From: Candidatus Nomurabacteria bacterium
GTDB taxonomy: Bacteria > Patescibacteriota > Minisyncoccia > Phycocordibacterales > UBA9973
Direction of reading: 5' to 3'
Assembly: GCA_963832025.1 (NCBI GenBank)
Contig: CAWHSF010000004.1
Coordinates: 1 to 41,330 of the forward strand
Length of the DNA stretch: 41,330 bases
Shown: one piece after another, positions 1 to 39,792 of the stretch
Position numbering within the stretch: the stretch's first letter is position 1
How the letters are laid out: the number at the start of each line of letters is the position of its first letter
The notes under the pieces: generated by a model
Told to the model about the DNA's origin: nothing
Seen by the model: the letters and a program-made list of their open reading frames with translations, nothing else
Databases searched by the model: none
Position numbers and translations under genes: made by a program

Positions 1-291
1 TCTGCCTCACCATTTCAAGAGCCAAAACCACCCGGCATTTCTTTCTTTTCAAGACCTTAACGGAATCACGGAGGAGCCTAATCACGGTCCTTTGTGCTTG
101 AGACAGGGTGTGATAATCTCCACAAAAAACGATATGAGAATTTAAAACGGAGAGTAAGAGTTCTCGTTTCGTGGAGACTTCCCGGAAATCCTGGAAGTCT
201 TTTTGATATTCCCTGAAGTATTTTTTTAACTCGGGAGAAAATAAAATCCGCCCAGAAGATTTCGGGCATACCTCTTCAACCGATCGTACAT
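1..291 (-). pseudogene. Partial hypothetical gene (5' part; runs off the window edge; frame change near 235)
   Basis: Minus-strand ATG at 291 gives MYDRLKRYARNLLGGFYFLP. After a frame change it continues ELKKYFREYQKDFQDFREVSTKRELLLSVLNSHIVFCGDYHTLSQAQRTVIRLL... to position 1. No family recognised with confidence. Confidence 0.25.
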
Positions 292-328
292 GATACGTTG
301 GATCCGAATTAAATGGGTACGAGGCAAC

Positions 329-1704
329 ATGATTAAAGTAGAAACTTTAAAACCAATTTTAGCTCAGACCGCGGCACTCTGGCTTTCTGGCAATGGTTCC
401 CTGCACCGCTTCCAGCAAGCCCGGAACCGGGGCACAAGGGCGAGTTGACGCTTGAGAGTCTTCTTAAGAATACGCTGTCCTCAAACGGCATGATCCAGGA
501 AGCCGTTCAGGACATCGAGATCGCGCGTTCCCAAACTCCAAACTGGCTGATCTGCCCTTTATCCCAAGGCCAGCGCGATGATCATTGGAGCTCCGATCTT
601 TGAGGAGAGAGGCAATGCGCTGCACTCCCAATCGAACTGGGGAAACTGGGGACCATTTTTTACGGGAGGGATCCAAGTCGTCGAGCCCCTTTATTCCTTT
701 GGAATGATAAGCAGCTATCAAAAAGCGGCGGAAGGGCAGGTCAACGCGAGAACTGAGCTGGCCGAGGTCAAGCGGTGGACGTGCTGAATCAAACGAAAGA
801 GATTTACTATGGTTATCGATTGGCAACGGATTTGGAAAAGTTGGTCGATGATCTCAGCTCTTTTCTTCAAGATGCGGTAAAAACCGCGGAAGAAGCTGTT
901 AAAGAAAAGAAAAAGTCAGCGGTGAAACCTCACGATTCCTATCACCTAAAAACGGCGTTGGACGATCTGGAACAGAAAAGACTTTATGCAAAAGCCGCAA
1001 AACAAACCGCCGAGCGCGCGGTTTCGTGGCTATCCGGTGTCAAATTCGCCTCTCGCCCCCGCGTCCCCCCAGACCTTTACCCTGCTGCCGATGGAGGAAT
1101 ACATCAAGATTGCCAAGGCCAATCGGCCAGAGTTTAAAGCGCTCTTGGCCGGACAAGAAGCTCGATCGGCGCTAAGAGACGCTAAACGTGCGCAAAGTTA
1201 TCCGATTGTTTTGCGGGGAGTTATGGGTTCGATAGGATGGACCCCCGTACGGGACAGACAAGATTCCGTTTTCGCTTACGATCCCTTCAATGCGATGACC
1301 GGAGGAGTCGGACTGGGGTTGAAATTCGATCTCGAGTTCGCCCGGCACTCCGCCGAAGCGCACGAACAGGACGCTGAGTTAATGAAACTCAAAGCGACTG
1401 AGAGCTGGGCTGCGCCAGGGATTGAACTACAGGTGAGAAAAGCTTTCTGGGAACTGGAACAAGCGAATGACGGGTTAAAGATCGCAAGCGATCGCAAGAC
1501 TCTCGCGAAAAAATGGTTTGTTTCCAATGCGATGGGCTGGTCCATCGGGATTACGCCGGCGAAGGATCTCTGGAATCTTTGGAGGGCGACGGGTTTTTGA
1601 GAAGAAATTAGATCCAGACCGTATACGCCCTTAATTTGGTGCTATCGCACCTTAGCCAAGCGGTCGGAAAGGAAATTACGAATTTGGAATATCGCAGTCA
1701 CTAA
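329..1704 (+). pseudogene. TolC-like outer-membrane efflux factor, at least 4 frame breaks
   Basis: ORF pieces 578-787, 775-1137 and 986-1600 plus untracked ends join into one protein: ...LTLESLLKNTLSSNGMIQEAVQDIEIARS..., ...EEYIKIAKANRPEFKALLAGQEARSALRDAKRAQSYP..., C-terminus ...YALNLVLSHLSQAVGKEITNLEYRSH with stop at 1702-1704. The two-repeat OMF-like pattern fits the TolC family. Confidence 0.65.
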
Positions 1705-2487
1705 CCAATGAATCACTTCCTCACCCTTCCCCCACTGCGCTTCAGCCTTAGAAAGAAAAAAACCGCCATCGCCACTTCCTCTAGAACCATCAAGTAGAGC
1801 CCCGTCTTGCTTTCCCCTTCCTGCGGGACCGTAGGTTACTTTTCTCGCCGGGCTTCTTCTTTTTCGCCTTCAGATGACTTTGCAGAACTCTTTGCTGAGT
1901 CTGACCGATTCCGGAGCCCCTCCCCTTGCTTCGAGGCCACAGCCAGGTCGAAATCGTTGTTCGTTTTGATACATGACCATCTTTTCGAACTGTGGAGCCA
2001 AGCGAGAGTAGTGTTCATTGGTAACCATGTAGTGGATTAAAATAGCCAAGCGGTTTTGAACAGTCGCAACAGAGCGAAGACGAAAACCCAGGAAGTTCCG
2101 ATTCGTACTGGAGGGAGTCGACCCGAAAGCGTTCCGCGGATATTTCGACGGCGCGTATAGCTCACCTTAGGTTTATGTCGTTTCCGGTTTCATCTTTGTA
2201 CGTTCTGGGCTTTTTGAGATAGTCCTCAACTTCAGACCGTCCCATTGCGTCGCAATGGTGGCAATCGACATCACTAGTGATTCATACCGATCCGGATTGG
2301 TGGTTCCCTGACAGTAAAAGGTCCCCTGAGTCAGTTCACACTTCCATCGCTGGGAGATTAAAAGACACATATTGTGTTTGAAGCGCAAATGCAGATGAGG
2401 CGAATAGAATACTTAAGAAAAAAAGTCTCATTTCTGTGTCTCCTACCTGAAATTGTACCACAGAGACGACGTGTCCCTATATATCGA

Positions 2488-3598
2488 CTACCCCCCCACC
2501 GCTTCGTCGATTTGCGCTTTGAGTTCCGAAGATCTGCCCATAAAGCTCTCCCGAGGATCGAGCGTCTTTTGAATGGGCGTACCCGGGACATGGCGAATAA
2601 GAATTTTGGAAATATGGTTTTTGAAGTTAGCGGTTTCACAGATCCGACGATAAATTTGCAGATCCATTTCTCCACTGTCTCCGATGAGAATGCATTTTTG
2701 GTTTTCAAGGTTGCTCATGATTTTTATGAAGAGTTCTCCACTTATGTCCAAAGCGCCCGTATCCCAGCCAACGCATGAACAAAGGCCCTTCGGGAAACCC
2801 CGTTCACGCAAGAACTTCAAAAGAAACGGAGCCAGCTGGTAAGGCGTGCTCGTCACGTAGATGATCATCGAATTCTTCGCTGCGAGCGATTGGTATAACT
2901 CCGCCATTCCCTCGATCGCCTCATACTTATAATAGTGCCCCCGGAACAAACCACTCACTATTTGCTTGAATCCAGTTGTCTCGGAGATCTCTGGAGTCTT
3001 TGATCGTATCGTCGATATCAGAAACGATCACCCACTTCACATTTTCATTCAGAAAATAAACCGGCGCGCTGAGAACTTCGTAGTCCCCCAGACGAACAAG
3101 GCCCAGCAACGTCTCAACACCCACCGGGCTCTTTATTCGAAGCCATGCCATTTGAGAAGCTTTCCAGGGAAGGGTCCACGGCAGTTGCAAATGGACAAAA
3201 CCGCGGTTCTCGGTACTGGCCTCAACGGTACGCAAAGAATTTTCCGTCATCGCCAGCTGAAAACGAATCCGCTCGAAAAACTCGAGATCGGGGATCCCTC
3301 TTAAGATGCGATGCAGTAAACGGCGGGGGCGAAACCCCAAAACCTCTTCTTGAGTTCCGTTATAAACCACGGCTTGGAGCGAAGTGAAATTACGCGTCGC
3401 GAGCGTCGGGATTGCAACGATCGATTTTTGGGGCCGATAAAGATCTAACGCCTGAAGACATTTAAAAAATATCACCTCGAAGGTCTTAAAGAATCGAAGC
3501 CAGCCCGCCCACCACTTGGGCCGCGGCAGATCGGTGAGTCGAAGCCCCGAGCGAAGCAAATTCTCTGGTTTTTCTTTGATCCGTTTCATCTTCGACAC
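2488..3598 (-). pseudogene. App1-like phosphatidate phosphatase (DUF2183), one frame break near 2940
   Basis: ORFs 2927-3598 and 2488-2958 join. Motifs: VIVSDIDDTIKDS (DxDxT), IIYVTSTPYQLAPFLLKFLRERGFPKG, and ILIGDSGEMDLQIY. Confidence 0.55.
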
Positions 3599-3663
3599 AA
3601 AAACTTCAGCTTTCCTTCACAGTTTCCGAAAAGTCAGTCATAAGGATCCGCTAATCTCCCCCA

Positions 3664-4769
3664 ATGAAACCCAACTACTTAAGGCTCTTTTTTCTCTTTC
3701 TCCAGATCTATGTCCTCATACTATTCCTTTCGCCATTTTTGAGAACGGCGTTAGCTCTGAATGAAACTTTTGAAATCTATAATGCGCCTCAAAGCCTGGG
3801 AATGGGCAATGCACTCACCGCTGACGCAACTGGATACACGGCACTTTATCACAATCCGGCAGGGCTGGCTTCGTTCACGAAAAAGAAAATGGAATTGACG
3901 GTGGTGGATCTGGAGGGAATTCTTGGGCAAACGCCCTAGAACTTGCAGCCTCCGCTCAAACACTCGGTATCTACCGCCTCTTTAGCCCGATGGCAAAAAA
4001 CGCGGGAAAGTATACTTATTTTAACTGGGCCAGCGTCCCCTCCTTCACCGTCCGTGGCTTTGGTGTTTCGCTGCTGGGAAGCTATCAATACGCGGGTCTC
4101 TCCGATGGAACCAATATCGATATCGACGCGAATGAAGATGTCGGCATTGTCGCGGGGTATGCGAAATATTTTGCCGGAAACGTCATTAAGCTCGGAGTAG
4201 ACGTGAAGGGTCTTGTCCGAAACGAAATGAAGGGTGTTTACGCCTTTAGCACACTGGCGACTTACAACGATCAAACTTTTCCGTCGCTCTTTAGGGAAGG
4301 GGCTGCCGTCGGAGCGGACAGCGGAATGATTATCACTCTGCCAAACAACTGGCTGCCCACATTCGGCGTCGCCTGGAGAGATATGTTCAACACGCAGTTC
4401 ACCCACACCCATATTATTAATTCACGCGCCAGCGGGACTCCGGACAATATTGGACAGAGCATCAACACCGCTTTTTCCGTTCATCCCTTTTTCAGCCGCC
4501 AGTTAAAATCCACGATTGCCCTCGAGTATAAACACTGGGAAGCCCAAGACTGGCCTTTGAGAAAACACGTGCACTTTGGGATGCAGCTGGAGGATGAAAA
4601 AAGCCTCTACGCTTGGCTGGGACTGAATCAACTCTACTTAACCTTGGGCCTTGGGTGGAGGGTCAAAGGCGGTACACTGGAAGCCGGTACTTACGGTGAA
4701 GATGTCGGAGACAATAACAACCCCGTGCAGGATCGCCGCTTTTTCTTTCGTTACACTATTGGGTTCTAA
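3664..4769 (+). pseudogene. Signal-peptide beta-barrel outer-membrane protein, one frame break near 3925
   Basis: Hydrophobic N-terminus, motif GMGNALTADATGYTALYHNPAGLA, alternating beta-strand pattern, and C-terminal ...FFFRYTIGF (terminal Phe). ORFs 3664-3939 and 3990-4769 join via ...WANALELAASAQTLGIYRLFSPMAKNAG. Confidence 0.5.
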
Positions 4770-10034: not shown

Positions 10035-11081
10035 ATGGCATTTATCGATGAAATAATAATATACGCAGAAGCCGGACGCGGCGGAAACGGTGTCGTGCGT
10101 TGGCGTCAGGAAAAATTTATACCAAAAGGCGGACCGGCCGGCGGAGATGCCGGGCGCGGAGGGGATTTTTACGTGCAAGCTGTCCGTGATATTCACGTGC
10201 TTTCAAAATACAAAGCAAAAAAAAGTTTTTCTGCCGGGCGGGGCGAGGACGGCGCAAATAAAAGCTTACATGGGAAAAATGGCATAGACTTATTTTTGGA
10301 GTTGCCGATTGGCTCTATCATCACCAATCTTGACACTGATGAATCTTGGCAATTGACTGAGGAAGGACAAAAAATATTAATTTTAAAAGGCGGATATGGA
10401 GGTTTTGGTAATGAACATTTTAAAAGTTCCACCAACACGACACCGAAAGAATGGCGACCGGGCGAAGAAGGTGAAAAAGGAAATTTTAGAATAGAGTTGG
10501 AGCTTTTTGCAGATATCGGATTGATTGGTTTACCAAATGCCGGCAAGAGCTCACTGCTCAATTCATTGACCAACGCGCAAGCGCGAGTAGGTGATTATGC
10601 TTTCACCACTCTTGACCCGAATTTGGGAGATTTTTATGGTTATATCATTGCGGACATTCCGGGAATTATCGAAGGTGCTTCGGAAGGCAAAGGTTTGGGT
10701 GTAAAATTTTTGCGTCATATCAAGCGTACTAAAATGCTTGCGCATCTTATATCTTTTGAGAACTTATCTAAAGGCAGCACCGGGATGATGAAAGTTTACA
10801 AAGATATTCGCAAAGAACTCGCCAAATACGACAAGAAATTAAATCTGGGAGTCGAAGGCTTGTCTGGAAAAAAAGAAATAATAATTTTGACTAAAAGCGA
10901 TGTGGTAGAAGATACCCGCCCGAACGACAATTCAGTCGGGCGGGAAAAAATCATTGAAAGGGAAATGAAAAAGTTTGAAAAACTCGGCGAAAAGGTTTTT
11001 GTAATTTCTTTATTTGATGATAAAATGATAAAAAAGTTCAGAGATGAACTGGTAAAAATTTTAAAGAAAGATGGCAAATAA
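10035..11081 (+). CDS. obg: GTPase Obg/CgtA
   Basis: N-terminal Gly-rich Obg fold (AGRGGNGVVRWRQEKFIPKGGPAGGDAGRGGDFY) and G motifs GLPNAGKSSLLN and DIPG. Confidence 0.9.
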   Translation: MAFIDEIIIYAEAGRGGNGVVRWRQEKFIPKGGPAGGDAGRGGDFYVQAVRDIHVLSKYKAKKSFSAGRGEDGANKSLHGKNGIDLFLELPIGSIITNLDTDESWQLTEEGQKILILKGGYGGFGNEHFKSSTNTTPKEWRPGEEGEKGNFRIELELFADIGLIGLPNAGKSSLLNSLTNAQARVGDYAFTTLDPNLGDFYGYIIADIPGIIEGASEGKGLGVKFLRHIKRTKMLAHLISFENLSKGSTGMMKVYKDIRKELAKYDKKLNLGVEGLSGKKEIIILTKSDVVEDTRPNDNSVGREKIIEREMKKFEKLGEKVFVISLFDDKMIKKFRDELVKILKKDGK

Positions 11082-13514: not shown

Positions 13515-14058
13515 AAATGAAGAAATAATTTTTCAAGGGAAGATGATAGAAATTGTTCACGAAACAGTTTCTTCAAATGGAAAAGAAATTATTTTAGAAA
13601 AAGGCAGACGTGCGCCGGGAGTCAGATTGATAATCAAAACTCCTGATAGCGGATTTTTAATAACCAAAGAACAAAGGTTCGACAAAGGTTTAGATTATCG
13701 TTTGCCAGGTGGAAAAGTTTTTGATTCTTTAATTGAATATAATAATTTTAAAAAAAATGCCGTAAATATTTTAACGAAGGCAAAAGAAGCTGCAATAAAA
13801 GAAGGCATGGAAGAAGCTGGAATCAAGCCTGTTGAAATGGAATTATTTTGTATTTCCAAATGTGGTGGGAGTTTTGATTGGGATTTATACTATTTTATAG
13901 TTGAAAAATATGATGAAGTCGGTCAAAATTTGGAAGAGCACGAAAAAATTGAAGTCATGAAAATTTCTCGTGAAGAATTAAAGAAATTAGCGTTGTCTGG
14001 TAAGATGAAAGAAGATAGAAGTGTGGCGGTGATATTAAAATATTTAAATAAGAATTAA
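13504..14058 (+). CDS. NUDIX-family hydrolase
   Basis: LPGGKV...AKEAAIKEGMEEAGI is Nudix-box-like. Overlaps the fba stop and shares TAATG with the next gene. Confidence 0.6.
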   Translation: MQNRNEEIIFQGKMIEIVHETVSSNGKEIILEKGRRAPGVRLIIKTPDSGFLITKEQRFDKGLDYRLPGGKVFDSLIEYNNFKKNAVNILTKAKEAAIKEGMEEAGIKPVEMELFCISKCGGSFDWDLYYFIVEKYDEVGQNLEEHEKIEVMKISREELKKLALSGKMKEDRSVAVILKYLNKN

Positions 14059-15788
14059 TGACAGAATCCAAAACTCCAAAATTTGATACATTGATGGATA
14101 AAATCTTGGGCGAAATGGTTCCTCATTCAAAAGTCTGCGCGGATTGTAAAAAAAAATTTGAAGTTGAGCCAGAAGATATAGTGTTCTATAAAATGTTCCG
14201 AGTTCTTGCTCCAAAACTTTGTCCGGATTGCAGGCAAAGACGCAGACTTTCTTTTGGGAACTATTCCAATATTTATAAACGCAAATGCGATTTTCCCGGA
14301 CACACCGATATTATGATTTCTCCCGTCGCACCAGTAATGCCTTGGGTGACATACGACCACGAGACATATTATTCGGATGTTTGGGATCCTTTTTCTTATG
14401 GGAAAAATGTTGAAGAAAATAAATCCTTTTTTGACCAGTTTCTGGATTTACTAAAAGTAATTCCTCAGCCTGGTGTGCGTCGTGATCCAAGTTCTGTCAA
14501 TAGCGATTTTAATTTTTACGGAAAGGATATGAAAGATTGTTATTATGTTTTCGGTGGCCGAAGCTCAGAAGATATAATGTATAGTTCTTCGATTTATAAG
14601 TCTAGGCATGTCGTGGATTCTTATTTTCTTAAAAAGGTTGATACAGCTTTTAGTTCCGCAAGAACAACTGATTCTTTTAATGTTAAATATGCTTATTTTT
14701 CAATGAATTGTATTGATTGTGATTTTATTTATGATTGCCGTAACTGCCAAAATTGTTTTGGTTGCGTAAATCTCAGAAATAAAAATTATTGTTGGTTTAA
14801 TGAACAGCTTTCCAAAGATGAATATCAAAAAAGAAAAGAGGGGATTGATTTAGGCAGCCGTAAGGTTGTCGATGATTTTACAAATAAATTTTTTGACATC
14901 GTAAAAGAAAATCCAATACGCGCTACTAGAATTTACAAATCACAAAATGTTTCTGGCGACGATATCATCACTTCCAATAATTGTCAAAAATGTTTTCAAG
15001 TAGAAAATGGTGATAATTTGAGATATGTAGCGCTTGCAATCGTAGGATTAAAAGATTCAATGGATATGGGTTATTCTGGTGGAGCGGAACGCATCTATAA
15101 TTCTCAGAATACAGGTGACAAGTCTGCTAATGTCAAATGTTCTTTTGCCACCAAAGAATCTGTCGATTGTGAATACGTGATGTCTTGTAGAAATTGCCAA
15201 AATTGTTTTGGTTGTGTGGGACTGAGTAATGCTTCTTACACAATTTTTAATAAAAAATACAACCCAGAAGAATATTGGAAAATATTGGACGAAATAAAAA
15301 CAAAAATGTTGCAAGAAGGTATTTACGGAGAATTTTTTTTGATGACTTTTTCGCCTATTGCTTACAATAGTTCTTTAGCAAATATAATTTTTCCAATGAC
15401 AGAAATCGAAGCAAAAAAACGCGGGCTCTTCTGGCAACCGGAAACAGATGTTGAAATGAAGAATTTACAGAACATCGAGGCGGATAAATTACCTGACAAT
15501 ATCAAAGACATAAATAATGAAATTTGTAAATTTGCGATTATCGGAAAAATCTCTAAAAAACCGTTTAAAATTACTGAAAGGGAATTAAATTTTTACAAAC
15601 AAAACAACATACCATTACCAACTGACACACCCTATCAGCGTATAATTGATCGCTATAAGGTTTTAAATAATTTTCAGATTTATCAAGAGAATTGTTTTTC
15701 TTGTGGAAAAGAAATTGAATCATCATATCGAAAATCAGATGGATATAAACCGTTTTGCGAACAATGTTATCAACAAAGAGTGTTATAA
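14058..15788 (+). CDS. Cys-rich zinc-ribbon repeat protein (conserved hypothetical)
   Basis: N-terminal CADCKKKFEV..EDIVFYKMF...LCPDCRQRRRL. Two internal C(R)NCQNCFGCV(N/G)L repeats. C-terminal FKITERELNFYKQNNIPLP...CFSCGKEI...CEQCY. Confidence 0.6.
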   Translation: MTESKTPKFDTLMDKILGEMVPHSKVCADCKKKFEVEPEDIVFYKMFRVLAPKLCPDCRQRRRLSFGNYSNIYKRKCDFPGHTDIMISPVAPVMPWVTYDHETYYSDVWDPFSYGKNVEENKSFFDQFLDLLKVIPQPGVRRDPSSVNSDFNFYGKDMKDCYYVFGGRSSEDIMYSSSIYKSRHVVDSYFLKKVDTAFSSARTTDSFNVKYAYFSMNCIDCDFIYDCRNCQNCFGCVNLRNKNYCWFNEQLSKDEYQKRKEGIDLGSRKVVDDFTNKFFDIVKENPIRATRIYKSQNVSGDDIITSNNCQKCFQVENGDNLRYVALAIVGLKDSMDMGYSGGAERIYNSQNTGDKSANVKCSFATKESVDCEYVMSCRNCQNCFGCVGLSNASYTIFNKKYNPEEYWKILDEIKTKMLQEGIYGEFFLMTFSPIAYNSSLANIIFPMTEIEAKKRGLFWQPETDVEMKNLQNIEADKLPDNIKDINNEICKFAIIGKISKKPFKITERELNFYKQNNIPLPTDTPYQRIIDRYKVLNNFQIYQENCFSCGKEIESSYRKSDGYKPFCEQCYQQRVL

Positions 15789-15797
15789 TAACAAAAC

Positions 15798-17645
15798 ATG
15801 AACAAAGAAATAAGAATTCAATTACGTAATTTTTTTAAAGGGGATATAGATGATAGTGAAGCGACACTCGTGCAATATTCTCACGATGCGAGCTTACTTG
15901 AAGTAAGACCAAAACTAGTGCTTTTTCCGCAAGATTCGGAAGATGTAAAAAATTTAGTGAAATGGGTTTCAGAGAATAAAGAAAAATATCCTGAGCTTTC
16001 CATTACGGCTCGTTGCGCGGGGACAGATATGTCCGGCGGAGCAATCGGGGAATCAATAATTTTGGATTTCACAAGATATATGAACAAGTTGATAAGTTGG
16101 AACCAGCTCCCAAAAAATTCTTCCGGATTACTCTACCCTGCGGGTGGAACCTTCCCCGTTCAGAATTCTTTGGAAGCTCATTCCATTACTGTTCAACCCG
16201 GAATGTTTTATAGAGATTTTGAAAAAATTACTTTAGGAAAAGGTTTAATTTTACCTTGTTTCACCGCCTCAAAAAGTATAAATGCTGTAGGCGGAATGTT
16301 TGGAAATAATTCTGCCGGGGAAAGAACTTTGAAATATGGAAAGACGGAAGATTACGTTTTAGAAGCTAAAGTCATATTTGCTGATGGAAATGAGTACCTT
16401 GTAAAGCCACTCAGTCGCGATGAATTGAATAAAAAAATGTCGCAAGGGGATTTCGAGGGAAATGTTTATAAAAATATTTTTGATTTGATAAATAAAAATG
16501 AGGACGAAATAAGATTAGCCAAGCCAAAAGTTCATAAAAATTCAGCCGGATATTATATTTGGAATGTGCTAAGTCCGGAGCCGAAGAAGAATTTTTTGGC
16601 TTTCCTCCAGCCTTCGGCCGGAACCTTCCGCCAGCAAAATTCTCCTTCGGCTCCTGCCATGCAGAGCGATAATTATTTTAATTTAAACAAATTGTTGGTT
16701 GGTTCGCAGGGAACATTGGGAATTGCGACCGAAATTACCTTTAAAGTAATACCGGACAATAAACATTCTAAACTTGTCGTGATATTTATGGAAGATATGG
16801 CGCCCCTCGGCAGATTGGTGGATGAAATTTTGACTCTTAATCCGGAAACACTAGAAACTTATGATGACAAAACGATGAAACTGGCAGTAAAATTCTTTCC
16901 GGATTTTTTAAAGAATAAAGGCTTTATTGGCATGTTTAAATTCATGTTATCTTTCTTGCCGGAATTTTTTATGATGGTCACCGGTGGTTTTCCGAAATTA
17001 ATTATTCTGGCCGAATTTGCTGGCGTTGACGAAGAAGACGTAAATGAAAAATGTGTAGCACTGGTGGAGAAAATAAAAGACTTTAAATTAAAAGTTCACA
17101 TCACTAAATCCGAAACAGAGGCAAGTAAGTATTGGGATATCAGGAGAGAAAGTTTTGCCTTGCTCCGAAAGCACATAAAAGGTATGCGCACTGCTCCATT
17201 TATAGACGATATTATTGTTCGTCCGGAATTTTTGCCTAAATTTCTTCCGGAATTAAACAGTATTTTGGTAAAATATCCCAGTTTGACTTATACCATCGCT
17301 GGTCATGCCGGAGATGGAAATTTTCACATCATTCCATTGATGGATTTCAAGCGTCCTGATACCGCTCAGATAATCCTAGAATTAGGAGAAAAAGTTTATG
17401 ATTTGGTCATAAGATATCATGGTTCTATAACCGCCGAACATAATGATGGTTTAATCCGTACGCCATATTTACGCAAAATGTATGGAGATAAAATCATTCA
17501 AATTTTTACCGAAATTAAGAAAATATTTGATTCGAAAAATATTTTTAATCCCGGTAAGAAAATTGCTACAGAAAATCTCGGTGGAACAAAAGACTACATT
17601 AGAACGCATATTGCCGAAGAGCATGATGCGGTGCACAAAGTTTAA
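15798..17645 (+). CDS. FAD-linked oxidase (GlcD / D-lactate dehydrogenase family) carrying two in-frame palindromic inserts
   Basis: Intact 615-aa ORF. FAD-binding region ...ITARCAGTDMSGGAIGESIILDFTRYMNK... and C-terminal ...AGHAGDGNFHIIPLMD...GSITAEHNDGLIRTPYL. Confidence 0.75.
   Translation: MNKEIRIQLRNFFKGDIDDSEATLVQYSHDASLLEVRPKLVLFPQDSEDVKNLVKWVSENKEKYPELSITARCAGTDMSGGAIGESIILDFTRYMNKLISWNQLPKNSSGLLYPAGGTFPVQNSLEAHSITVQPGMFYRDFEKITLGKGLILPCFTASKSINAVGGMFGNNSAGERTLKYGKTEDYVLEAKVIFADGNEYLVKPLSRDELNKKMSQGDFEGNVYKNIFDLINKNEDEIRLAKPKVHKNSAGYYIWNVLSPEPKKNFLAFLQPSAGTFRQQNSPSAPAMQSDNYFNLNKLLVGSQGTLGIATEITFKVIPDNKHSKLVVIFMEDMAPLGRLVDEILTLNPETLETYDDKTMKLAVKFFPDFLKNKGFIGMFKFMLSFLPEFFMMVTGGFPKLIILAEFAGVDEEDVNEKCVALVEKIKDFKLKVHITKSETEASKYWDIRRESFALLRKHIKGMRTAPFIDDIIVRPEFLPKFLPELNSILVKYPSLTYTIAGHAGDGNFHIIPLMDFKRPDTAQIILELGEKVYDLVIRYHGSITAEHNDGLIRTPYLRKMYGDKIIQIFTEIKKIFDSKNIFNPGKKIATENLGGTKDYIRTHIAEEHDAVHKV
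16106..16177 (+). repeat. Palindromic element family A, copy A1 (in frame in the FAD oxidase)
   Basis: Arms gctcccaaaaaattc / gaattctttggaagc (13 of 15 complementary). Core ttccggattactctaccctgcgggtggaaccttcccc. Translated LPKNSSGLLYPAGGTFPVQNSLEA. Confidence 0.8.
16577..16654 (+). repeat. Palindromic element family A, copy A2 (in frame in the FAD oxidase)
   Basis: Arms ggagccgaagaagaatttt / aaaattctccttcggctcc (18 of 19 complementary). 78 nt. Translated EPKKNFLAFLQPSAGTFRQQNSPSAP. Confidence 0.8.
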
Positions 17646-17648
17646 GCA

Positions 17649-17732
17649 CTAGATGTTGGACATCTGCAAAGCAGGTGTCCAACATCGGGCTCCAGACGTC
17701 CAACGTCTTTTGACTTTTGCTAGATGTTCGGT
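17649..17732 (+). repeat. Nested palindromic element family D, copy D1
   Basis: Starts 4 nt after the oxidase stop. 16-bp hairpin 17652-17686 (gatgttggacaTctgc aaa gcagGtgtccaacatc), a second hairpin agacg tccaa cgtct, and direct repeat ctagatgtt at both ends. Confidence 0.8.
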
Positions 17733-25050: not shown

Positions 25051-25476
25051 ATGGCCACAATTTCAAACAATGACATAGCTCGTGCAATATATTTATCGAC
25101 AAAAGATAATAATTTGGAGGTCTTGCCTCCAAGTGGAGGCAAGACTTCCAAATATGCCAACATCGTTCAATTTTTATACAGGAAAAGATTATTGTTGCAA
25201 GCCCCAGACATTCTTTCTCGCTTGGACAAAATAATTAACGAAGCGGACGGAAGGATTGTGGTCAAGTTATCAAGCAAAGAACATTTAACAGAAAACATCA
25301 AAAAAGAAATCGCGCAAATTTTAAAAGAACGTTATGCAGCAGAAAAAATTATTTTCGTAGAAAGTTTAAATGAAAAATTGCTTGGAGGATTTAAAATAGA
25401 AGTAAATGATGAAGTAATAGATTTAACAATCAAAAACAAAATTGGAAAATTACAAGAATATTTAACATCATACTTT
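25051..25476 (+). CDS. atpH: F0F1 ATP synthase subunit delta (short); no stop codon before the atpA ATG
   Basis: ...LLGGFKIEVNDEVIDLTIKNKIGKLQEYL is a typical OSCP C-terminus. The reading frame continues directly into atpA. Confidence 0.7.
25114..25151 (+). repeat. 38-nt palindrome inside atpH
   Basis: ttggaggtcttgcctcca ag tggaggcaagacttccaa (17 of 18 complementary), read as LEVLPPSGGKTSK. Confidence 0.7.
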
Positions 25477-26981
25477 ATGAGCACAAACCATATCGTAGAA
25501 AATTTAAAAAAGGAAATAGAAAATTTTTCCGCTCAAATCAAAGTTGAGAAAGTCGGCAAGGTACTGGAACTTTTCGACGGTATTGCCAAAGTTTCCGGAC
25601 TTTCCGATATTAAATCTTCCGAAATGGTGACTTTTCCAAATGGTGAGACGGGTGTGGCGCTAAACTTAGAAGAAGATACCGTTGGCATAATTATCTTTGG
25701 TGATTTTTCTAAAATTAAAGAAGGAGATGAAGTAAAAGCCACCGGTAAAATTTTGGAAGTTCCCATCTCTGATGCCATTTTGGGTACGAGTGGTAAATGC
25801 AATCGGTGCTCCGATTGATGGTAAAGGCGCAATTAAAGCAAATAAAACTTATCCAATTGAAAAAGTTGCATCCGGGAGTAATTACTCGTCTAAAAGTGAT
25901 CAACCGATGGCTACAGGCATCAAAGCGATTGATGCAATTATTCCGATTGGAAGTGGCCAACGAGAACTCATCATCGGAGATAGACAGACTGGTAAAACAG
26001 CCATTGCCATTGATACAATTTTAAACCAAAAGGGTCAAAACATGATTTGTGTTTATGTTTCTATTGGACAAAAAGATTCCAAACTTCGCAAAATTACAGG
26101 CAAGATTGGAAGCTGGTGGAGCTATGGAATATACGGTAATCGTTTCTGCAGGCGCTTCGGAAGCTGCAGCGCTTTCTTATATCGCTCCTTATACTGGAGT
26201 TTCTATTGCTGAATATTTTATGGACCAAGGCAAGGACGTTTTGATTATTTACGATGATCTTTCCAAACACGCTGTGGCTTATCGAGAAATTTCTCTTTTA
26301 CTTCGACGCCCTCCAGGCCGTGAAGCATATCCTGGAGATGTCTTTTATTTGCACTCACGTTTGCTTGAACGTGCTTGTCGCAAGAACGAAAAGTATGGTG
26401 GTGGGTCTATTACTGCTTTGCCGATAGTGGAGACACAAGCCGGAGATGTGTCCGCTTATATTCCGACCAATGTCATTTCCATCACGGATGGACAGATTTT
26501 TTTGGAGACAGATTTATTTTATAAAGGCATTCGTCCAGCAGTAAATGTCGGTCTTTCTGTTTCTCGCGTCGGTGGAGATGCTCAAATCAAAGCGATGAAG
26601 AAAGTCGCCGGTAACGCTCAAGCTGGATCTTGCGCAATTTCGAGAACTAGAAGCTTTCGCGCAATTCGGTTCCGACCTCGATGAATCAACTAAGCGTCAG
26701 CTTGAACGTGGCAAGAGAGCAGTGGAAGTTTTAAAACAGCTTCAATATTCGCCGATTAAAGTTGAAAACCAAGTTGTGACCCTTTATGCTCTCACCAAAG
26801 GCTACATGGATGATGTTGCGGTTGAAAAAATAAAAGAATTTGAAGAACAACTCGCTTCAATACGCAGAACACAATGCAAAAATTTTCTTCAAAGAAGTTA
26901 GCTGAGAAAAAAATGTGGACCGAAAAAGGTGAAGAAGAATTAAAAACAGTAATTGGAGATTTTAAAAAGAATTTTAGTTAA
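25477..26981 (+). pseudogene. atpA: F0F1 ATP synthase subunit alpha, at least 5 frame breaks
   Basis: MSTNHIVENLKKEIENF..., [87 protein letters not shown], and ITDGQIFLE are found in different frames. Confidence 0.9.
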
Positions 26982-26986
26982 ATTTT

Positions 26987-27915
26987 ATGGCTGGAACCAA
27001 AGAGATTAAAAGAAGAATAAAAAGTGTGAAAAACACAAAAAAAATCACCAAGGCGATGGAGCTAGTCGCAGCTTCAAAGATGAAGCGCGCTGTGATGGCA
27101 ACTTTGGCTTCCAGGCTTTACGCCGAATATTCTTGGGAAATTTTGACATCAATTGTGCAAAATATGGAAGAAAGTTTAAAAGACCAAACGCATCCGTTTT
27201 TTGTGCAAAAACCGTTAAAAAATATACTACTAGTTTTGATAACCTCTAATCGTGGGCTTTGTGGCGCTTACAATACACAGGTGATAAAAAAAGCTCTCTC
27301 AGTTATCAAGAAAAACAAAGATATAAATGTTGATATATTAGCCATAGGTAAAAAAGGAGATACGGCCATGCGTCGAGTCGGAAAAAATGTCATTGCTACC
27401 TTTACTGATATACCGAGTAATGCAACTTTTTCTGATACTTCTCCGGTCTCAGAGGTTATTTTTGAAGAGTATAAAAAAGGTTCATATGATAAAGTTTTGG
27501 TTGCTTATACAAAATTTACTTCTCCGCTTGTTCAAACCCCGAGCATTAAACAAGTGCTTCCGGTTCTCGCGCTGAACTCAAAGAACTTATTGATGAACTT
27601 TCCTTGATAGGGAATACAGAAGGTAAAATCGAGACACCTTTAAAAATAAACAAAAAAATCAATTATCTTTTTGAAGGCAATCAGGAAAAATTCATGGAGT
27701 TGCTGGTAGAAAAACTGGTTGAAGTGCAAAGATATCAAATGTTCCTAGAATCTAACGCATCAGAACAATCGGCTAGAATGGTGGCCATGAAAAATGCAAA
27801 CGAAGCCTCGAGTGAAATGATTGACGACTTAACTCTGATGTTTAACAAGGCTCGACAGGCAAATATTACCAGAGAGATATCAGAAATTAGCGCAGGGATG
27901 GCCTCCGTTAATTAA
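26987..27915 (+). pseudogene. atpG: F0F1 ATP synthase subunit gamma, frame break(s) near 27570-27610
   Basis: MAGTKEIKRRIKSVKNTKKITKAMELVAASKMKRA... and C-terminal ...NKARQANITREISEISAGMAS. Confidence 0.85.
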
Positions 27916-27947: not shown

Positions 27948-29340
<1,393 letters not shown>

Positions 29341-33964: not shown

Positions 33965-34012
33965 ATGTTCAACGTCAAGGCTCCCAGACGTTGGACGTAT
34001 GTAACGCATCTA
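33962..34012 (+). repeat. Nested palindromic element family D, copy D2
   Basis: tagatgttcaacgtc aaggctccca gacgttggacgt atgt aacgcatcta. The mreB TAG stop is the first 3 nt. It fills the gap to the holB ATG (34019). Confidence 0.7.
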
Positions 34013-34018
34013 GAATTT

Positions 34019-34783
34019 ATGAACCTAATCCAATATTTAGATAAAAATAATTTACACCATGCGTATCTAATAGAAGGAGCGCGAAATGAGATTGTTCCAG
34101 AAATTATAGATTTTTTAAAAACTATAGGTGTAAATACAACCGGCAATCCGGATTTTATTTCAATTGCAATTGACAATTTTAAAACTGAGGAGGCTTTCGA
34201 TTTACGCGCAATGTCGTCGGATAAAAGCTTCGGAACAGGTAAAAAAATATTTTTGATTTGTGCCAACAGTTTTTCCTTGGATGCCCAGAATGTTTTACTC
34301 AAGATGTTTGAGGAACCGAAAGAGAACACTCATTTTTTATTGGTTGTGCCTGATATAAATACGCTTTTAAAAACGCTTGTTTCAAGATTTTATGTTATTG
34401 TCACTAAATCCGATTTAAAAGAAGAAATAAAAAAAGCAGAAAAATTTACTGCTATGTCTTTAAAAGATAGAATCGATTTTGTCAAAGAGTTGTTGGCTGA
34501 GATAGAAGAAGAGGACGAAGAAGGAAACGAGATTATTACGCTAGACTCAAATCGTTCCAAAGCTTTAAAATTTTTAAATGCGCTTGAAGTTGTTTTAAAC
34601 GGCAGGTTGGCAAAGAATTTTTCCGGATTACTCCACCCTGCAGATGAAACCTTTCCCATTCAAAATTCTTTGCCAACCTGCCTTGAACACCTTTTCAAGG
34701 TTCGAGAATTTCTTCGTATGCCCGGGAGTTCAGCAAAGAAGCTTATGGAATCTATTGCTTTGATTATTCCAGAGAGAATATGA
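34019..34783 (+). CDS. holB: DNA polymerase III delta' subunit with an in-frame family-A insert
   Basis: MNLIQYLDKNNLHHAYLIEGA...KIFLICANSFSLDAQNVLLKMFEEPKENTHFLLV...LVSRF. The track start at 33965 reads through element D2. Confidence 0.75.
   Translation: MNLIQYLDKNNLHHAYLIEGARNEIVPEIIDFLKTIGVNTTGNPDFISIAIDNFKTEEAFDLRAMSSDKSFGTGKKIFLICANSFSLDAQNVLLKMFEEPKENTHFLLVVPDINTLLKTLVSRFYVIVTKSDLKEEIKKAEKFTAMSLKDRIDFVKELLAEIEEEDEEGNEIITLDSNRSKALKFLNALEVVLNGRLAKNFSGLLHPADETFPIQNSLPTCLEHLFKVREFLRMPGSSAKKLMESIALIIPERI
34601..34682 (+). repeat. Palindromic element family A, copy A3 (in frame in holB)
   Basis: Perfect 21-nt arms ggcaggttggcaaagaatttt / aaaattctttgccaacctgcc. Core ttccggattactccaccctgcagatgaaacctttccc. 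Read as GRLAKNFSGLLHPADETFPIQNSLPTC. Confidence 0.85.
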
Positions 34784-36493: not shown

Positions 36494-37248
36494 ATGCAAA
36501 CAAAGTTAATTCACGAAGTTCGGGCGGTAAAAAATAAAAAAGAACTTGCGAATATTATTAAAGCGCAAAGAATTAGCGAGCAGGTTTTAAAAGATGTTTT
36601 AAAAATTTTAAAATCAGGAGTGGGTGAAATTGAAATTGCTAATTTTATTAAAAAATCTTTCATAAAATATGGAGCGCCAATTTTATCATTTCCGCCGATT
36701 GTTTCTTTTGGTAAAAATACAGCTAATATTCATCATGAACCCGGTAAATCAAAGCTAAAGAAAGGGGATATAATAATGTTTGATTTTGGATGCACGGTAA
36801 ATCATTATTGTTCTGATATGACGCGTACTTATTTCTGGGGCGAACCCCTCGGCTAAACAGAAGAAAATATATTTAGATGTCTTAAAATCGCAAGAACTTT
36901 CACTAGGAAAAATCAGAAAGGGGAAAAACGAGCAAAAGTTGTAGATAAAATTGCTCGAGACTTTTTAAGTAAAAAAACGCCCGACCGAACGGTCGTTCGG
37001 GCGGGTATAAGAAAAATTTTCAGCATGGCTTGGGTCATGGAGTCGGGACAGTTATTCACGAATGGCCAAATTTTAAACCAAAGAGCGAAGATATTCTTCC
37101 GATTGGATGTGTAATGACCGTAGAACCGGGGATTTACCTAAAAGGTTTTGGCGGAGTGCGTATAGAAGATATGGTTTTAATCACAAAAAATGGATGTATT
37201 AATCTCACTAAAGTTCCAAAGAATTTGGAAAGTGCGATATTAAAATAG
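36494..37248 (+). pseudogene. M24-family Xaa-Pro peptidase (catalytic domain only), 2-3 frame breaks, one at palindrome C1
   Basis: ...FPPIVSFGKNTANIHHEPG..GDIIMFDFGCTVNHYCSDMTRTYFWG..., IARDFLSKK [element] GYKKNFQHGLGHGVGTVIHEWP..., MTVEPGIY...GGVRIEDMVLIT. Confidence 0.75.
36980..37005 (+). repeat. GC hairpin family C, copy C1 (inside the M24 peptidase gene)
   Basis: cccgaccgaacg gt cgttcgggcggg (11 of 12 complementary), located exactly where the reading frame changes. Confidence 0.7.
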
Positions 37249-37250
37249 TT

Positions 37251-37305
37251 TCTCAGACGTTGGACATCTGCAAAGCAGGTGTCCAACATTTTCAACGTCT
37301 AGAGG
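37251..37305 (+). repeat. Nested palindromic element family D, copy D3
   Basis: Starts 3 nt after the peptidase stop. Contains the 29-nt core gttggacatctgcaaagcaggtgtccaac, identical to 17655-17683, flanked by agacgt.../...aacgtctag. Confidence 0.8.
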
Positions 37306-37404: not shown

Positions 37405-39792
37405 ATGGCCAAAAAAAACAAAATTAGCGTGGCGGTATTGTGCGGTGGACCTTCTTTAGAAAGAGGAATTTCTATGAATTCTGCTCGAAGTGTTTTGGAT
37501 CACTTGGGTAGTTTGGGAGTAGAAATTGTTCCTGTATATTTTAATGAAAAAAAGAAAGCTTTTAAAATATCTACTGCGCAACTTTATTCAAATACTCCTA
37601 GTGACTTTGATTTTAAATTAGCTATATCGGGCAAAGAGCTTTCCAACTCCTCTCTCATAAAAATTTTAAAAAATGTTGATATTGTTTTTCCGTGTATTCA
37701 TGGAACTTTCGGCGAAGATGGCGAACTCCAAGCATTTTTGGAAAAAAATAAAATTCCATTTATTGGCTCTTCTGCCAGAGCTTGTAAGATGGCCTTCGAT
37801 AAGCACCGAGCAAATGAATATATTCGTTCGTTGGGATTTTTTGCTCCATCATCTATTGTCATTAAAATCACCGATACAAAAAAAGAAATTACGGAAAAAG
37901 TAAAAAATTTGTGGGAAAATGAAAAAATCACTCGCGCTATTGTAAAGCCTGCTTCCGGTGGTTCCAGTATCGGTGTGTTTTCAGTCGAAAATATTTCCGA
38001 TGCGTTAAAAAATATTGAAAATTTATTTAGTAAGCGTATGGATACGCGTGTGGTAATTGAACCATTTGCAGAAGGCCAAGAGTTTACCGTGATTATTTTG
38101 CAAAACAGATTTAATATGCCGGTTGCTATCATCCCGACAGAAATGGAAATGGATTATGATAAGCATCAATTTTTCGATTTCCGTAAAAAATATTTACCAA
38201 CAAGGCAAGTAAAATATCATTGTCCTCCAAGATTTCCTAATGAAATTATTGAAAAAATCCAAATTCAAGCTGAACAACTTTTTTCTGTTTTTGGGATGAC
38301 TGATTTTGCGCGATTTGATGGTTTTTTCATGCCCGATGGCAATATTTGGTTTTCTGACTTTAATCCGATTTCCGGTATGGAACAAAATAGTTTTCTTTTT
38401 CAACAATCTTCTCGTATTGGTTTTTCACACCAAGATCTTTTACGTTATGTTGTTAATAATGCTTTCTTGCGTCGAGATATTCCGGTTTCAGTAGGAAACA
38501 GTTTTCTGAATGAAAGCAAGATTTCTCGCAAGCCAGTTGCTGTATTGTTTGGTGGCGAGACTGCCGAAAAACAAGTTTCTCTGATGAGTGGCACAAATGT
38601 TTGGCTCAAATTGCGTGGCTCTAAAATATATAAGCCATATCCGTATCTGCTGGCTAAAACAGGTGAAGTGTGGGAATTGCCTTATTCTTATATTTTAAAT
38701 CACACCGTAGAAGAAATAATAGAAAATGCAAAAAAAGCAGAAGATGATATCGAAAGATTATTTTTCTTAATTGAAAAAGTAAAAATAAAATTATGCTTAC
38801 ATACATCCGATGTCACGGAAGATTTTTTTATGCCACGAAAGCATTTGTTAAATGATATTTTAGATAAATATAAATTTACTTTTTTGTCTTTACATGGTGG
38901 GGCCGGTGAAGACGGAACCTTGCAAAAAATTCTAGAGAATAAAAAAATAAAATACAATGGTTCAAATAGCGTTGTTTCTAAATTATGTATGGATAAATGG
39001 ACAACTAACGAAATTATTAAAAACGTCAATATAAAAGGTGTCAGTGTGACACCGCACATTCTACTCAAGATAAAAGATGCTCCAAAAAATCCAAATTCAT
39101 ATTGGAATATGCTTTTAGAAAAATTAGAAACCAAAACAATTCTGGTTAAACCAAGAGGCGATGGTTGTTCTGCAGGGGTAGTTCGGCTCTATAATAAAAA
39201 AGATTTGGCAAATTATATTTCTTTAATAAAAAACAAAAAACTTATAGCTTCATCTGGCACTTTTACAAATCAAAACAGCGTTGTAGATATGCCGGAAGGT
39301 GAAGTGAGTGATATTATTTTTGAATCCTTCATCGAAACCGACAAATTGAAAGTCAGTTCCGGAAAAATTATTCATAACAGGAAAACTGGTTATGTAGAAA
39401 TGACTGTCGGTGTTTTTGAGCAGAACGGAAAAACACAAGCATTTTCACCTTCCATCACGATTGCCGAAGCTTCTATTTTGAGTGTGGAAGAAAAATTTCA
39501 AGGTGGTACCGGAGTAAATATTACACCCCCACCAAAAGAAATTATTTCTGTAAAAAATCTCAATAAAGTAAAAAAATCAATTGAAATTATCGCCAAAAAA
39601 ATTGGTATTCGTGGTTATGCCCGCATAGATATTTTTGTTCAAATTCAAACCGGCAACATTATTGTGATAGAGATTAACACTCTACCTGGGCTTACTCCTT
39701 CTACGGTAATTTACCATCAAGCCTTGGCGGAGAGTAAGCCAATATTTCCAAAAGAATTTTTAGAATTATTGATAAAAAATAAAGGGTATTAA
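37405..39792 (+). CDS. ddl: Tandem D-alanine--D-alanine ligase fusion (two complete ATP-grasp Ddl modules, 795 aa)
   Basis: Module 1: ISVAVLCGGPSLERGISMNSA...CIHGTFGEDGELQAFLE...VKPASGGSSIGV...DFNPISGM. Module 2 (from about 38527): KPVAVLFGGETAEKQVSLMSG...SLHGGAGEDGTLQKILE...VKPRGDGCSAGV...EINTLPGLTP. Confidence 0.8.
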   Translation: MAKKNKISVAVLCGGPSLERGISMNSARSVLDHLGSLGVEIVPVYFNEKKKAFKISTAQLYSNTPSDFDFKLAISGKELSNSSLIKILKNVDIVFPCIHGTFGEDGELQAFLEKNKIPFIGSSARACKMAFDKHRANEYIRSLGFFAPSSIVIKITDTKKEITEKVKNLWENEKITRAIVKPASGGSSIGVFSVENISDALKNIENLFSKRMDTRVVIEPFAEGQEFTVIILQNRFNMPVAIIPTEMEMDYDKHQFFDFRKKYLPTRQVKYHCPPRFPNEIIEKIQIQAEQLFSVFGMTDFARFDGFFMPDGNIWFSDFNPISGMEQNSFLFQQSSRIGFSHQDLLRYVVNNAFLRRDIPVSVGNSFLNESKISRKPVAVLFGGETAEKQVSLMSGTNVWLKLRGSKIYKPYPYLLAKTGEVWELPYSYILNHTVEEIIENAKKAEDDIERLFFLIEKVKIKLCLHTSDVTEDFFMPRKHLLNDILDKYKFTFLSLHGGAGEDGTLQKILENKKIKYNGSNSVVSKLCMDKWTTNEIIKNVNIKGVSVTPHILLKIKDAPKNPNSYWNMLLEKLETKTILVKPRGDGCSAGVVRLYNKKDLANYISLIKNKKLIASSGTFTNQNSVVDMPEGEVSDIIFESFIETDKLKVSSGKIIHNRKTGYVEMTVGVFEQNGKTQAFSPSITIAEASILSVEEKFQGGTGVNITPPPKEIISVKNLNKVKKSIEIIAKKIGIRGYARIDIFVQIQTGNIIVIEINTLPGLTPSTVIYHQALAESKPIFPKEFLELLIKNKGY

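Follow-up and report, generated by a model that had tools for sequence, protein, structure and literature searches.

In-frame hairpin repeats in housekeeping genes of Candidatus Nomurabacteria and their resemblance to Rickettsia palindromic elements

Rickettsia palindromic elements (RPEs), which comprise RPE-1 and other RPE families, are described in the summaries given by two later papers as short palindromic repeats that sit in frame within conserved genes (Ogata et al. 2000; summarised in PMC2229807 and PMC10969869). Related behaviour has been described for intragenic copies of repetitive extragenic palindromic (REP) sequences, the GTAG- and CGTC-tagged palindromes (Di Nocera et al. 2013, PMC3733652), and for bacterial MITEs (transposable elements of miniature size with inverted repeats) that contribute to open reading frames (ORFs), namely ERIC, the 107-bp form of Correia and YPAL (Delihas, PMC2229807). 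Selfish DNA in protein-coding genes has hitherto been regarded mainly as a Rickettsia oddity, alongside such scattered REP and MITE cases. Here, a stretch of 41,330 nt from a Candidatus Nomurabacteria bacterium (GCA_963832025.1, contig CAWHSF010000004.1, positions 1 to 41,330, forward strand; referred to as the window) is analysed, in which three homologous hairpin repeats lie in frame in two housekeeping genes. They probably represent an RPE-like family of translated, transposase-less palindromic elements in genes of the candidate phyla radiation (CPR), the mode of mobility being one that we infer. Beyond the peptide that is added to the host protein, the element is without coding capacity.

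The two host genes and the three copies, termed A1, A2 and B, are the following (R1 is the covariance model used, P2 and P3 are inner helices of the hairpin).

15798..17645, + strand: host gene 1, a 615-aa flavin adenine dinucleotide (FAD)-linked oxidase of GlcD/D-LDH type; intact ORF with two element copies; Pfam PF01565 (FAD_binding_4) and PF02913 (FAD-oxidase_C).
16102..16183, + strand: copy A1, whole modelled hairpin, originally placed at 16106-16177; R1 82.5 bits, E 4.9e-18; encodes NQLPKNSSGLLYPAGGTFPVQNSLEAHS, oxidase residues ~103-127.
16116..16169, + strand: conserved 54-nt core of A1, by pattern match (alignment columns 15-68); internal inverted repeat AATTCT/AGAATT, P2 CGG/CCG, loops ATTACT and AACCTTCC, P3 with a 3-nt loop.
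16576..16657, + strand: copy A2, whole modelled hairpin, originally placed at 16577-16654; R1 90.8 bits, E 4.6e-20; encodes PEPKKNFLAFLQPSAGTFRQQNSPSAPA, oxidase residues ~261-288.
16590..16643, + strand: conserved 54-nt core of A2, by pattern match and alignment; P2 variant TGGC/GCCA.
33965..34783, + strand: host gene 2, a 272-aa DNA polymerase III delta-prime subunit, holB-like; intact ORF with one copy; Pfam PF13177.
34602..34683, + strand: copy B, whole modelled hairpin, originally placed at 34601-34682; R1 79.3 bits, E 3.1e-17; encodes GRLAKNFSGLLHPADETFPIQNSLPTCL in the holB-like protein.
34616..34669, + strand: conserved 54-nt core of B, by pattern match and alignment.

The three copies are 65-85% identical in pairwise comparison over 62 nt, and an example of the peptide encoded by the hairpin segment is NFSGLLQPSAGTFPVQNS. 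A strict pattern built from them, AATTYTTN{19,27}GRAACCTTYCN{4,8}ARAATTCT, finds exactly A1, A2 and B in the window and nothing in 100 shuffles, whilst the covariance model gave 79-91 bits (E 1e-17 to 1e-20) for the same three copies and no other significant match. Recounting upheld the arm complementarity first reported (13/15, 18/19 and 21/21 bases), the length of 78 nt for A2 and, for all three copies, the shared orientation, the shared codon phase, the freedom from stop codons and the translated peptides. Their predicted RNA folds are better than those of dinucleotide-shuffled controls on both strands, as had been anticipated, and are stronger on the minus strand (z on the plus/minus strand of -4.0/-5.6 for A1, -6.1/-6.5 for A2 and -7.4/-7.8 for B, with 0 of 200 shuffles equal). 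In an Rfam scan of the window only tRNAs exceeded the threshold, and over the elements only sub-threshold microRNA-like hairpins were returned, the best being mir-186 at 24 bits against a cut-off of 70 bits.

Further copies, which the original prediction required of a true repeat family, were readily found. The strict pattern was run against one genome for each of 185,579 species and returned 30 stretches, 28 of them true and two due to chance; all 28 true stretches come from metagenome-assembled genomes (MAGs) of Nomurabacteria/Paceibacterota/Minisyncoccia type, three MAGs being labelled Saccharibacteria, and the representative genomes hold 1-5 strict matches each, several having 2-5. Metagenome contigs supplied 50 more stretches (46 true, 4 chance) and covariance-model searches of the fetched loci added diverged copies, giving 79 distinct copies after duplicate removal. 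A long ORF is kept open across the element in 77/79 copies, of which 62 are in sense and 15 in antisense orientation: every sense copy (62/62) reads as KN[FS]xxLLxPSxGTF[PR]xQN[FS] and every antisense copy (15/15) as KN[FS]xxGRFxPKxGVxxKN[FS]. The two exceptions are a copy that is read in another frame, right where a release-factor ORF begins, and a copy that is ambiguous. Adjacent copies in opposite orientation occur at loci L005 and L007. The host genes, as named by Pfam, include those for translation (LeuRS, PheS, PheT, MnmA with at least two sites, the CCA-adding enzyme and TruB) and for DNA repair or replication (UvrA, UvrC, the NAD-dependent DNA ligase LigA and HolB), as well as PurH, an S-adenosylmethionine-dependent methyltransferase and the FAD oxidase. 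A repeat family in frame in many unrelated housekeeping genes is the Rickettsia-like behaviour that had been proposed from the window copies. One of the hosts is unusual in other respects: the LeuRS gene at 221-3817 (-) of L067 encodes 1199 aa with inserted Ham1-like and NUDIX domains, plus an antisense element near the anticodon-binding domain.

Searches at the protein level were uninformative, the 30-aa A1 peptide giving only three matches among 1.84 billion representatives, all of them to unrelated repeat proteins, and a 40-aa concatenated consensus peptide giving no word matches. A phage vector was also considered and rejected; the sole match in a viral contig was a chance one within a tandem repeat. 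In full-text literature searches no account of elements of this kind from CPR, Patescibacteria or Parcubacteria turned up, in agreement with the initial impression that they had not been reported, and the family is thus apparently undescribed, although widespread in Nomurabacteria/Paceibacteria.

That the segments are insertions, as first suggested, is borne out by orthologues, structures and structure prediction alike. The 120 closest orthologues of the oxidase (named Nomurabacteria, Paceibacterota and Minisyncoccia) range from 550 to 659 aa, with the length differences concentrated at the two element sites; about 50 of the 120 are without an insert at the A2 site, and the A1 segment is missing in locus L031 and in many orthologues. 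Neither insert is present in relatives that are ~80% identical (protein P0003 and, at the DNA level, the empty allele in L031), and both are present in the oxidase of L033, which is 86% identical. Solved homologues in the PDB (LctD, glycolate oxidase) align on either side of both segments but lack them. In an AlphaFold2 model built on 67 orthologues (predicted template modelling score 0.79), the predicted local distance difference test score falls below 50 at residues 105-126 and 261-291, matching both inserts, and these low-confidence segments sit between the confident strands E98-103/E128-132 and E258-260/E292-294. The inserts are predicted to form disordered loops where the fold tolerates them. 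Among 120 holB orthologues, 64 carry the element, ~30 carry short remnants such as KNFS-SQNSLQIC, and in 27 the site is taken up by another short sequence, itself conserved (..SKxxFDTxFFEH..); the insert of the window is present in P0121, a 99% identical holB-like protein from an independent assembly. The expectation that the segments would be lineage-specific was borne out only in part: the PDB homologues are indeed without them, but many orthologues of the same clade carry the element at the same positions. Such same-site elements are shared or recurrent insertions with fast turnover and not ancestral protein sequence. Directly upstream of the oxidase in the window lies a gene (14058-15788) for a 576-aa cysteine-rich protein with CxNCxNCFGC motifs, an internal DNA repeat (14735-14780 / 15185-15230) and no Pfam match; it is not at that position in L031 or L033.

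The anatomy of the element was derived from a structural alignment of 33 copies over 82 columns. Three nested helices are found: a long P1, formed by site-specific arms together with the repeat AARAATTYT/ARAATTCTT, a P2 of 3-4 bp, and a P3 of 6-7 bp closed by a 3-nt loop. Between them lie conserved unpaired asymmetric loops (ATTMCT on the 5' side and AACCTTCC on the 3' side). The core is 54 nt long in every aligned copy save one of 53, and its inverted repeat is conserved but internal (columns 13-20 / 61-68). The arms outside it differ at each site whilst remaining mutually complementary; they extend 2-24 bp (median 15) beyond an invariant A-T pair at column 13, so that the hairpin totals 58-102 nt. 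A sister subfamily, subfamily 2, with the peptide KNFSGLTLPGVPGGTHTVQNS (KNSEWCGSHSVPREGSSQKN in antisense), shares the internal repeat and the layout and has a longer P3 and another 3' loop. In other species it is found at those very sites of holB and the oxidase, and two of its copies are:

10587-10674 of L035: subfamily 2 copy.
10582-10669 of L037: subfamily 2 copy.

Additional peptide types (KNFSAFALGDEGQGTHD.., QDFKSRGSPDLGQGGRRLENF and ENSWSLFHPSDGTGRLENS) suggest that there may be more subfamilies.

Base pairing in the aligned copies is well above expectation, with 87.9% of the cells designated as paired being able to pair, as opposed to 65.7% when shuffled and 33-52% with the partners slid. 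The covariation score of 0.541 compares with 0.137 when shuffled (0/500 reach it) and 0.07-0.14 in slid controls. Many double changes are seen, among them those at pairs (19,62) (UA 21 / CG 11), (23,57) (GC 15 / CG 13), (24,56) (GC 23 / AU 7 / CG 2), (25,55) (CG 16 / GC 15) and (35,43) (GC 16 / CG 10 / UA 3 / AU 2), and each arm pair shows three or four Watson-Crick types across copies. Changes in the arms had been called compensatory from the window copies; this does not hold for three paralogous copies by themselves, but covariation is found once many copies, orthologous ones included, are compared. In sense copies, read on the plus strand of the element, A.C mismatches outnumber G.U pairs (116 vs 17). 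Selection on the antisense strand was the first reading of this excess; mismatches are few in the 14 antisense copies, and we now think that the bias may be mainly a by-product of codon structure, able to arise with no strand-specific selection, in which A/G third positions (Lys, Glu, Gln) face a fixed second-position C (Ser, Pro, Ala) under AT pressure.

Codon usage in 73 cores, compared with that in the genes of the window, indicates which level of the sequence is constrained. The synonymous sites of the loops and of P3 are frozen: CTC (Leu) is used in 72/73 cores against a background share of 9%, TTC (Phe) in 71/73 against 17%, ACC (Thr) in 71/73 against 21%, GGA (Gly) in 70/73 against 33% and CCT (Pro) in 69/73 against 26%, whilst an NCG codon, with third-position G, is found in 71/73 and TCG makes up 9% of Ser codons in the background. 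The unpaired loop GGAACCTTCC is nearly invariant. The residues encoded by P2 vary freely (SG, LA, ST, LT... facing PV, RQ, RL, RH...) while the pairing persists. Among orthologous copies, third codon positions agree at 0.70-0.94 in the core and at 0.43-0.54 elsewhere in the gene. The amino-acid identity of the arms is 0.22-0.57, apart from a single pair of close relatives (0.92); few parts of the protein evolve as fast as the arm codons, yet their complementarity is kept. Frozen synonymous sites in the core, together with variable P2 and arm residues whose pairing is kept, argue for constraint on nucleic-acid sequence and structure. Constraint has accordingly been shown, as far as the compared copies can reveal it, to act on the nucleotide sequence of the core and on base pairing rather than on the peptide.

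Turnover is evident at the holB site. There, homologous arms (..K[FL]VKN / NSLQIC..) enclose four different cores, these being subfamily 1 and subfamily 2, each in sense and antisense, and with the remnants in which the core has been lost between the repeats and the empty alleles there are six states in all. When placed on a neighbour-joining tree of the remaining protein, which is based on 215 columns only and is noisy, the six states need 58 Fitch changes versus 68 when shuffled; they are scattered nearly at random, which indicates that turnover, or recombination, is fast relative to protein divergence. Two closely related oxidase alleles, L066 and L053, whose nucleotide identity was put by eye at ~85% along a short upstream stretch, share the same arms (GATCAAAAACAGG / CCTGTTTTTGATC) and have cores that are reverse complements at 51/54 positions. 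Between the two, the A.C mismatch at the repeat's base is turned into G.T, which places the breakpoints of the inversion in the outer arms. These alleles show directly that the core can invert in place within unchanged arms. The two oxidase copies of L033 have cores that are identical at 54/54 positions and arms that are alike at 14/28, and the cores of A1 and A2 in the window differ at 16/54 positions.

The arms themselves appear to bear traces of how they arose. At the holB site the left arm encodes residues common to empty alleles (LHxK[FL][VM]), and the right arm is the complement of the left, standing in place of the conserved FDTxFF of empty alleles. In L066 it is the right arm that spans an ancestral sequence, namely conserved VFDL, and the left arm repeats it in inverted form. 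In both cases the arms look like palindrome extension templated on one flank. No sign of target-site duplication was found around the elements, flanking direct repeats being no commoner than among shuffled partners (9 vs 4.9 for k=2, 0 vs 0.3 for k=4).

Taken together, these elements would be selfish or neutral DNA that is tolerated in the loops of large housekeeping proteins and translated there as disordered loops, neutral or nearly so for the host. Spread and maintenance would take place at the DNA level by way of the hairpin, most likely through replication template switching or fold-back synthesis with no dedicated transposase. The core would be copied between sites in either orientation by means of the conserved internal repeat, the arms would be perfected and extended from flanking coding sequence, and the same process would delete cores between the arms. 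This route is favoured by the lack of a target-site duplication, by ends that vary from copy to copy, by the presence of both orientations in frame around a symmetric repeat, and by arms that can be copied from a flank; no transposase domain was found in the 34 scanned ORFs of the window, which is ~5% of a genome. The stronger proposal, that the hairpin propagates itself by the replication machinery alone, with strand switching between copies, fold-back building of arms and the same chemistry flipping or deleting the core, is tentative and on balance doubtful. Several observations weigh against the picture of mobile, host-neutral DNA. Nearly invariant unpaired loops and conserved orthologous cores need purifying selection; the copies were found by pattern or model, so that their apparent conservation is inflated, with codons 6, 8 and 9 exempt, since they lie in the unconstrained gap of the search pattern and ascertainment is no explanation for them. 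Were turnover slower than the noisy holB tree suggests, selection for function in place, and not mobility, would follow. Core identity is no higher within genomes than between them (0.805 vs 0.804, p = 0.44), which argues that gene conversion among copies is not pervasive, and such conversion is not supported as a general process, L033 being one clear case. At site A2, the arms in the window and those in L033 show no relation to one another or to the empty-site flanks, and ~10 non-orthologous pairs of copies share at least 11/13 arm bases where ~2 are expected (a rough hand estimate), so that arms may partly travel with the element and then diverge. No mobility event was directly seen, and no mobilising enzyme was identified in the 41 kb of this genome and the pieces of 2-20 kb from others; translation of the segment is deduced from maintenance of the frame.

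The main alternative for the frozen loops is a host function, in which the host would retain the core as a functional cis-element, displayed at the end of a long helix as a binding or processing site in DNA or RNA, with read-through tolerated; its partner could, for example, be an RNase, an RNA-binding protein or a protein of the nucleoid, of replication or of repair. It would account for loop nucleotides and synonymous sites that are nearly invariant in 73 copies from many species, for cores that remain 80-94% identical at orthologous sites amid saturated synonymous positions and arms whose divergence is compensated, for the lack of homogenisation within genomes, and for decay by clean deletion and not by erosion through point mutation. 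We nevertheless consider it unlikely: copies are few (3 in 41 kb, with 1-5 strict matches per representative genome), and presence is scattered among close relatives with empty alleles common, so no particular site needs the element. Both orientations at one site are hard to square with a role at the mRNA level. On the sense strand G.U is nearly lacking while A.C is tolerated (17 vs 116), and there is no Rfam match. Still less probable is a classical MITE or REP-type element whose movement depends on a transposase supplied in trans from another locus of the genome, either an IS200/IS605-type Y1 enzyme or a REP-associated tyrosine transposase (RAYT) acting on single-stranded hairpins, or a DDE enzyme acting at the AAGAATT repeat. 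A sub-terminal inverted repeat on a structured hairpin with conserved loops is the kind of substrate that structure-specific transposases use, and intragenic REPs and RPEs occur in the same gene classes, namely tRNA synthetases, TruB and Uvr proteins (PMC3733652), but neither a target-site duplication nor conserved ends were found, the arms being unique to each site, no GTAG/CGTC tag was seen on reading the core alignment by eye (no formal search was made), and the window, ~5% of a genome, has no transposase domain. IS608-like TTAC/TCAA cleavage motifs were sought in the core and rejected, their positions varying between copies. Last, an ancestral fast-evolving loop, a removed intron- or intein-like element or an assembly artefact might be suspected from the many orthologues with related residues at the same positions and from the many frameshifts elsewhere in the window assembly. 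This can hardly be entertained, being already contradicted by the present data: one 54-nt sequence recurs in >12 unrelated genes and >70 independent assemblies, empty alleles and PDB homologues are without the segment, the frame is kept in 77/79 copies, which would be needless for a removed element, there are no ribozyme or intron matches, and 18-28 residues give no intein-like coding capacity.

The window contains other repeats and irregularities that are separate from the elements described above. A GC-rich palindrome, CGCCCGA..N..TCGGGCG, is found inside genes at 10917-10942, 36978-37003 and 40301-40326. In Obg it is in frame (EDTRPNDNSVGREK), and in the M24 peptidase and alanine racemase genes it forms precise inserts of 29 nt and 31 nt between adjacent orthologous codons, with the frame broken. 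Its pattern has three matches in the window, where none is expected, and only two in 704 kb of related loci; on the strength of these matches it could be a lineage-specific burst of another intragenic element. Translational bypassing of these palindromes was considered and set aside, no matching take-off and landing codons being read in the sequence. The off-by-one lengths may be assembly errors, and single-base errors are the simpler explanation for the broken frames because the assembly has many other frameshifts. Frameshifts or in-frame stops split atpH/atpA (25051-26975), atpG (26987-27915), atpD (27957-29340), gatB (~12059) and the M24 peptidase gene (~36854); atpA shifts frame four times, and the split essential genes are intact in the relatives L033-L037, so that either many assembly indel errors or pseudogenes in this genome are at issue. 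The three elements, for which other assemblies give confirmation, are unaffected. Two intergenic positions hold an identical 29-nt hairpin, GTTGGACATCTGCAAAGCAGGTGTCCAAC, at 17655-17683 just upstream of the L25 gene and at 37259-37287 just after the M24 peptidase gene, with a partial copy at 33982-34008 and a related one at 7186-7216 of L013; a terminator or a regulatory site are candidate roles, and the hairpin makes the start of the L25 ORF, at 17653, seem too early. Finally, the D-alanine-D-alanine ligase (Ddl) gene at 37405-39792 encodes 795 aa comprising two complete Ddl units in tandem, with a counterpart at 15731-18088 of L034, and Ddl in L035-L037 is a single unit of 320 aa.

The behaviour once associated mainly with Rickettsia is now found in an unrelated small-genome lineage, the Parcubacteria group of CPR, in at least 12 essential translation and DNA-repair genes of many species. 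Hundreds of related MAGs provide a natural series of alleles at one codon (empty, filled, inverted, swapped and deleted), which makes it testable how the element moves, whether templated repair by itself can keep up a hairpin, and how proteins come to tolerate or recruit the inserted loops. The inserts account for much of the length variation and many of the low-confidence loops of CPR proteins, and they can mislead alignment, orthology calls and structure prediction. Propagation free of a transposase would, if true, mean a new way for DNA to move and would steadily supply reduced CPR genomes with new protein loops.

Comparison with known systems sets the element apart from most of them. Self-splicing introns, archaeal-type introns, inteins and bypass elements do not fit a segment that keeps the frame in 77/79 copies, has no Rfam match above threshold and encodes a short peptide. 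Quasipalindrome-templated mutation and inversion mediated by inverted repeats, which proceed by replication template switching, are mutational processes at fixed sites, and to our knowledge they have not been described as a means by which a repeat family spreads between genes. Such a process would explain, without selection on RNA, why arms change together, palindromes are perfected and extended, and cores flip or are deleted. With MITEs the element has in common that it is non-autonomous, forms a hairpin and is fused in frame to host ORFs, as MITEs occasionally are (PMC2229807). MITEs, however, end in conserved terminal inverted repeats, are flanked by target-site duplications of TA or another sequence and are mainly intergenic, whereas here the termini are variable, no duplication was found and nearly all copies lie in genes; two defining features of MITEs, conserved termini and target-site duplication, are therefore lacking. 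Intragenic REPs are likewise small hairpin repeats that sometimes lie within ORFs and encode 20-30 extra residues (PMC3733652), and they resemble the element in being over-represented in DNA repair and translation genes, in their compensatory structure and in their long persistence at orthologous positions. In contrast to it, REPs are mostly extragenic and high-copy, with stems of 5-13 bp and a terminal tetranucleotide tag, and GTAG REPs go with a RAYT gene; the element is essentially only intragenic and low-copy, with three nested helices and conserved internal loops, and in comparison with REPs and their paired forms (REPINs) no tag was seen by eye and no RAYT is present in the 41 kb.

The closest likeness is to RPEs, as these are described in the summaries cited at the outset. 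Both are short palindromic repeats that fold into a long stem-loop (PMC2229807, PMC10969869), both lie in frame and stop-free in conserved housekeeping genes with one frame giving a conserved peptide, and both have insert-free orthologues and positions where the fold tolerates an insert, and lack both a transposase of their own and a clear target-site duplication; the kinds of host gene that they share include tRNA synthetases, TruB and Uvr proteins. Set against those same descriptions, the hosts belong to a CPR lineage, free-living or episymbiotic, and not to the Rickettsiales, and the size is 58-102 nt (with a 54-nt core) as opposed to the 105-146 bp of RPEs. The architecture differs as well, in that the conserved inverted repeat lies inside the element and each site has outer arms of its own, both orientations are used, each in frame, and the core flips in place and can give way to that of another subfamily within the same arms. 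Because host, size and architecture differ, the element is not one of RPE-1 to RPE-10 proper, the distinction being drawn from the descriptions of RPEs and not by sequence comparison, and it stands beside them as an RPE-like family of the CPR.

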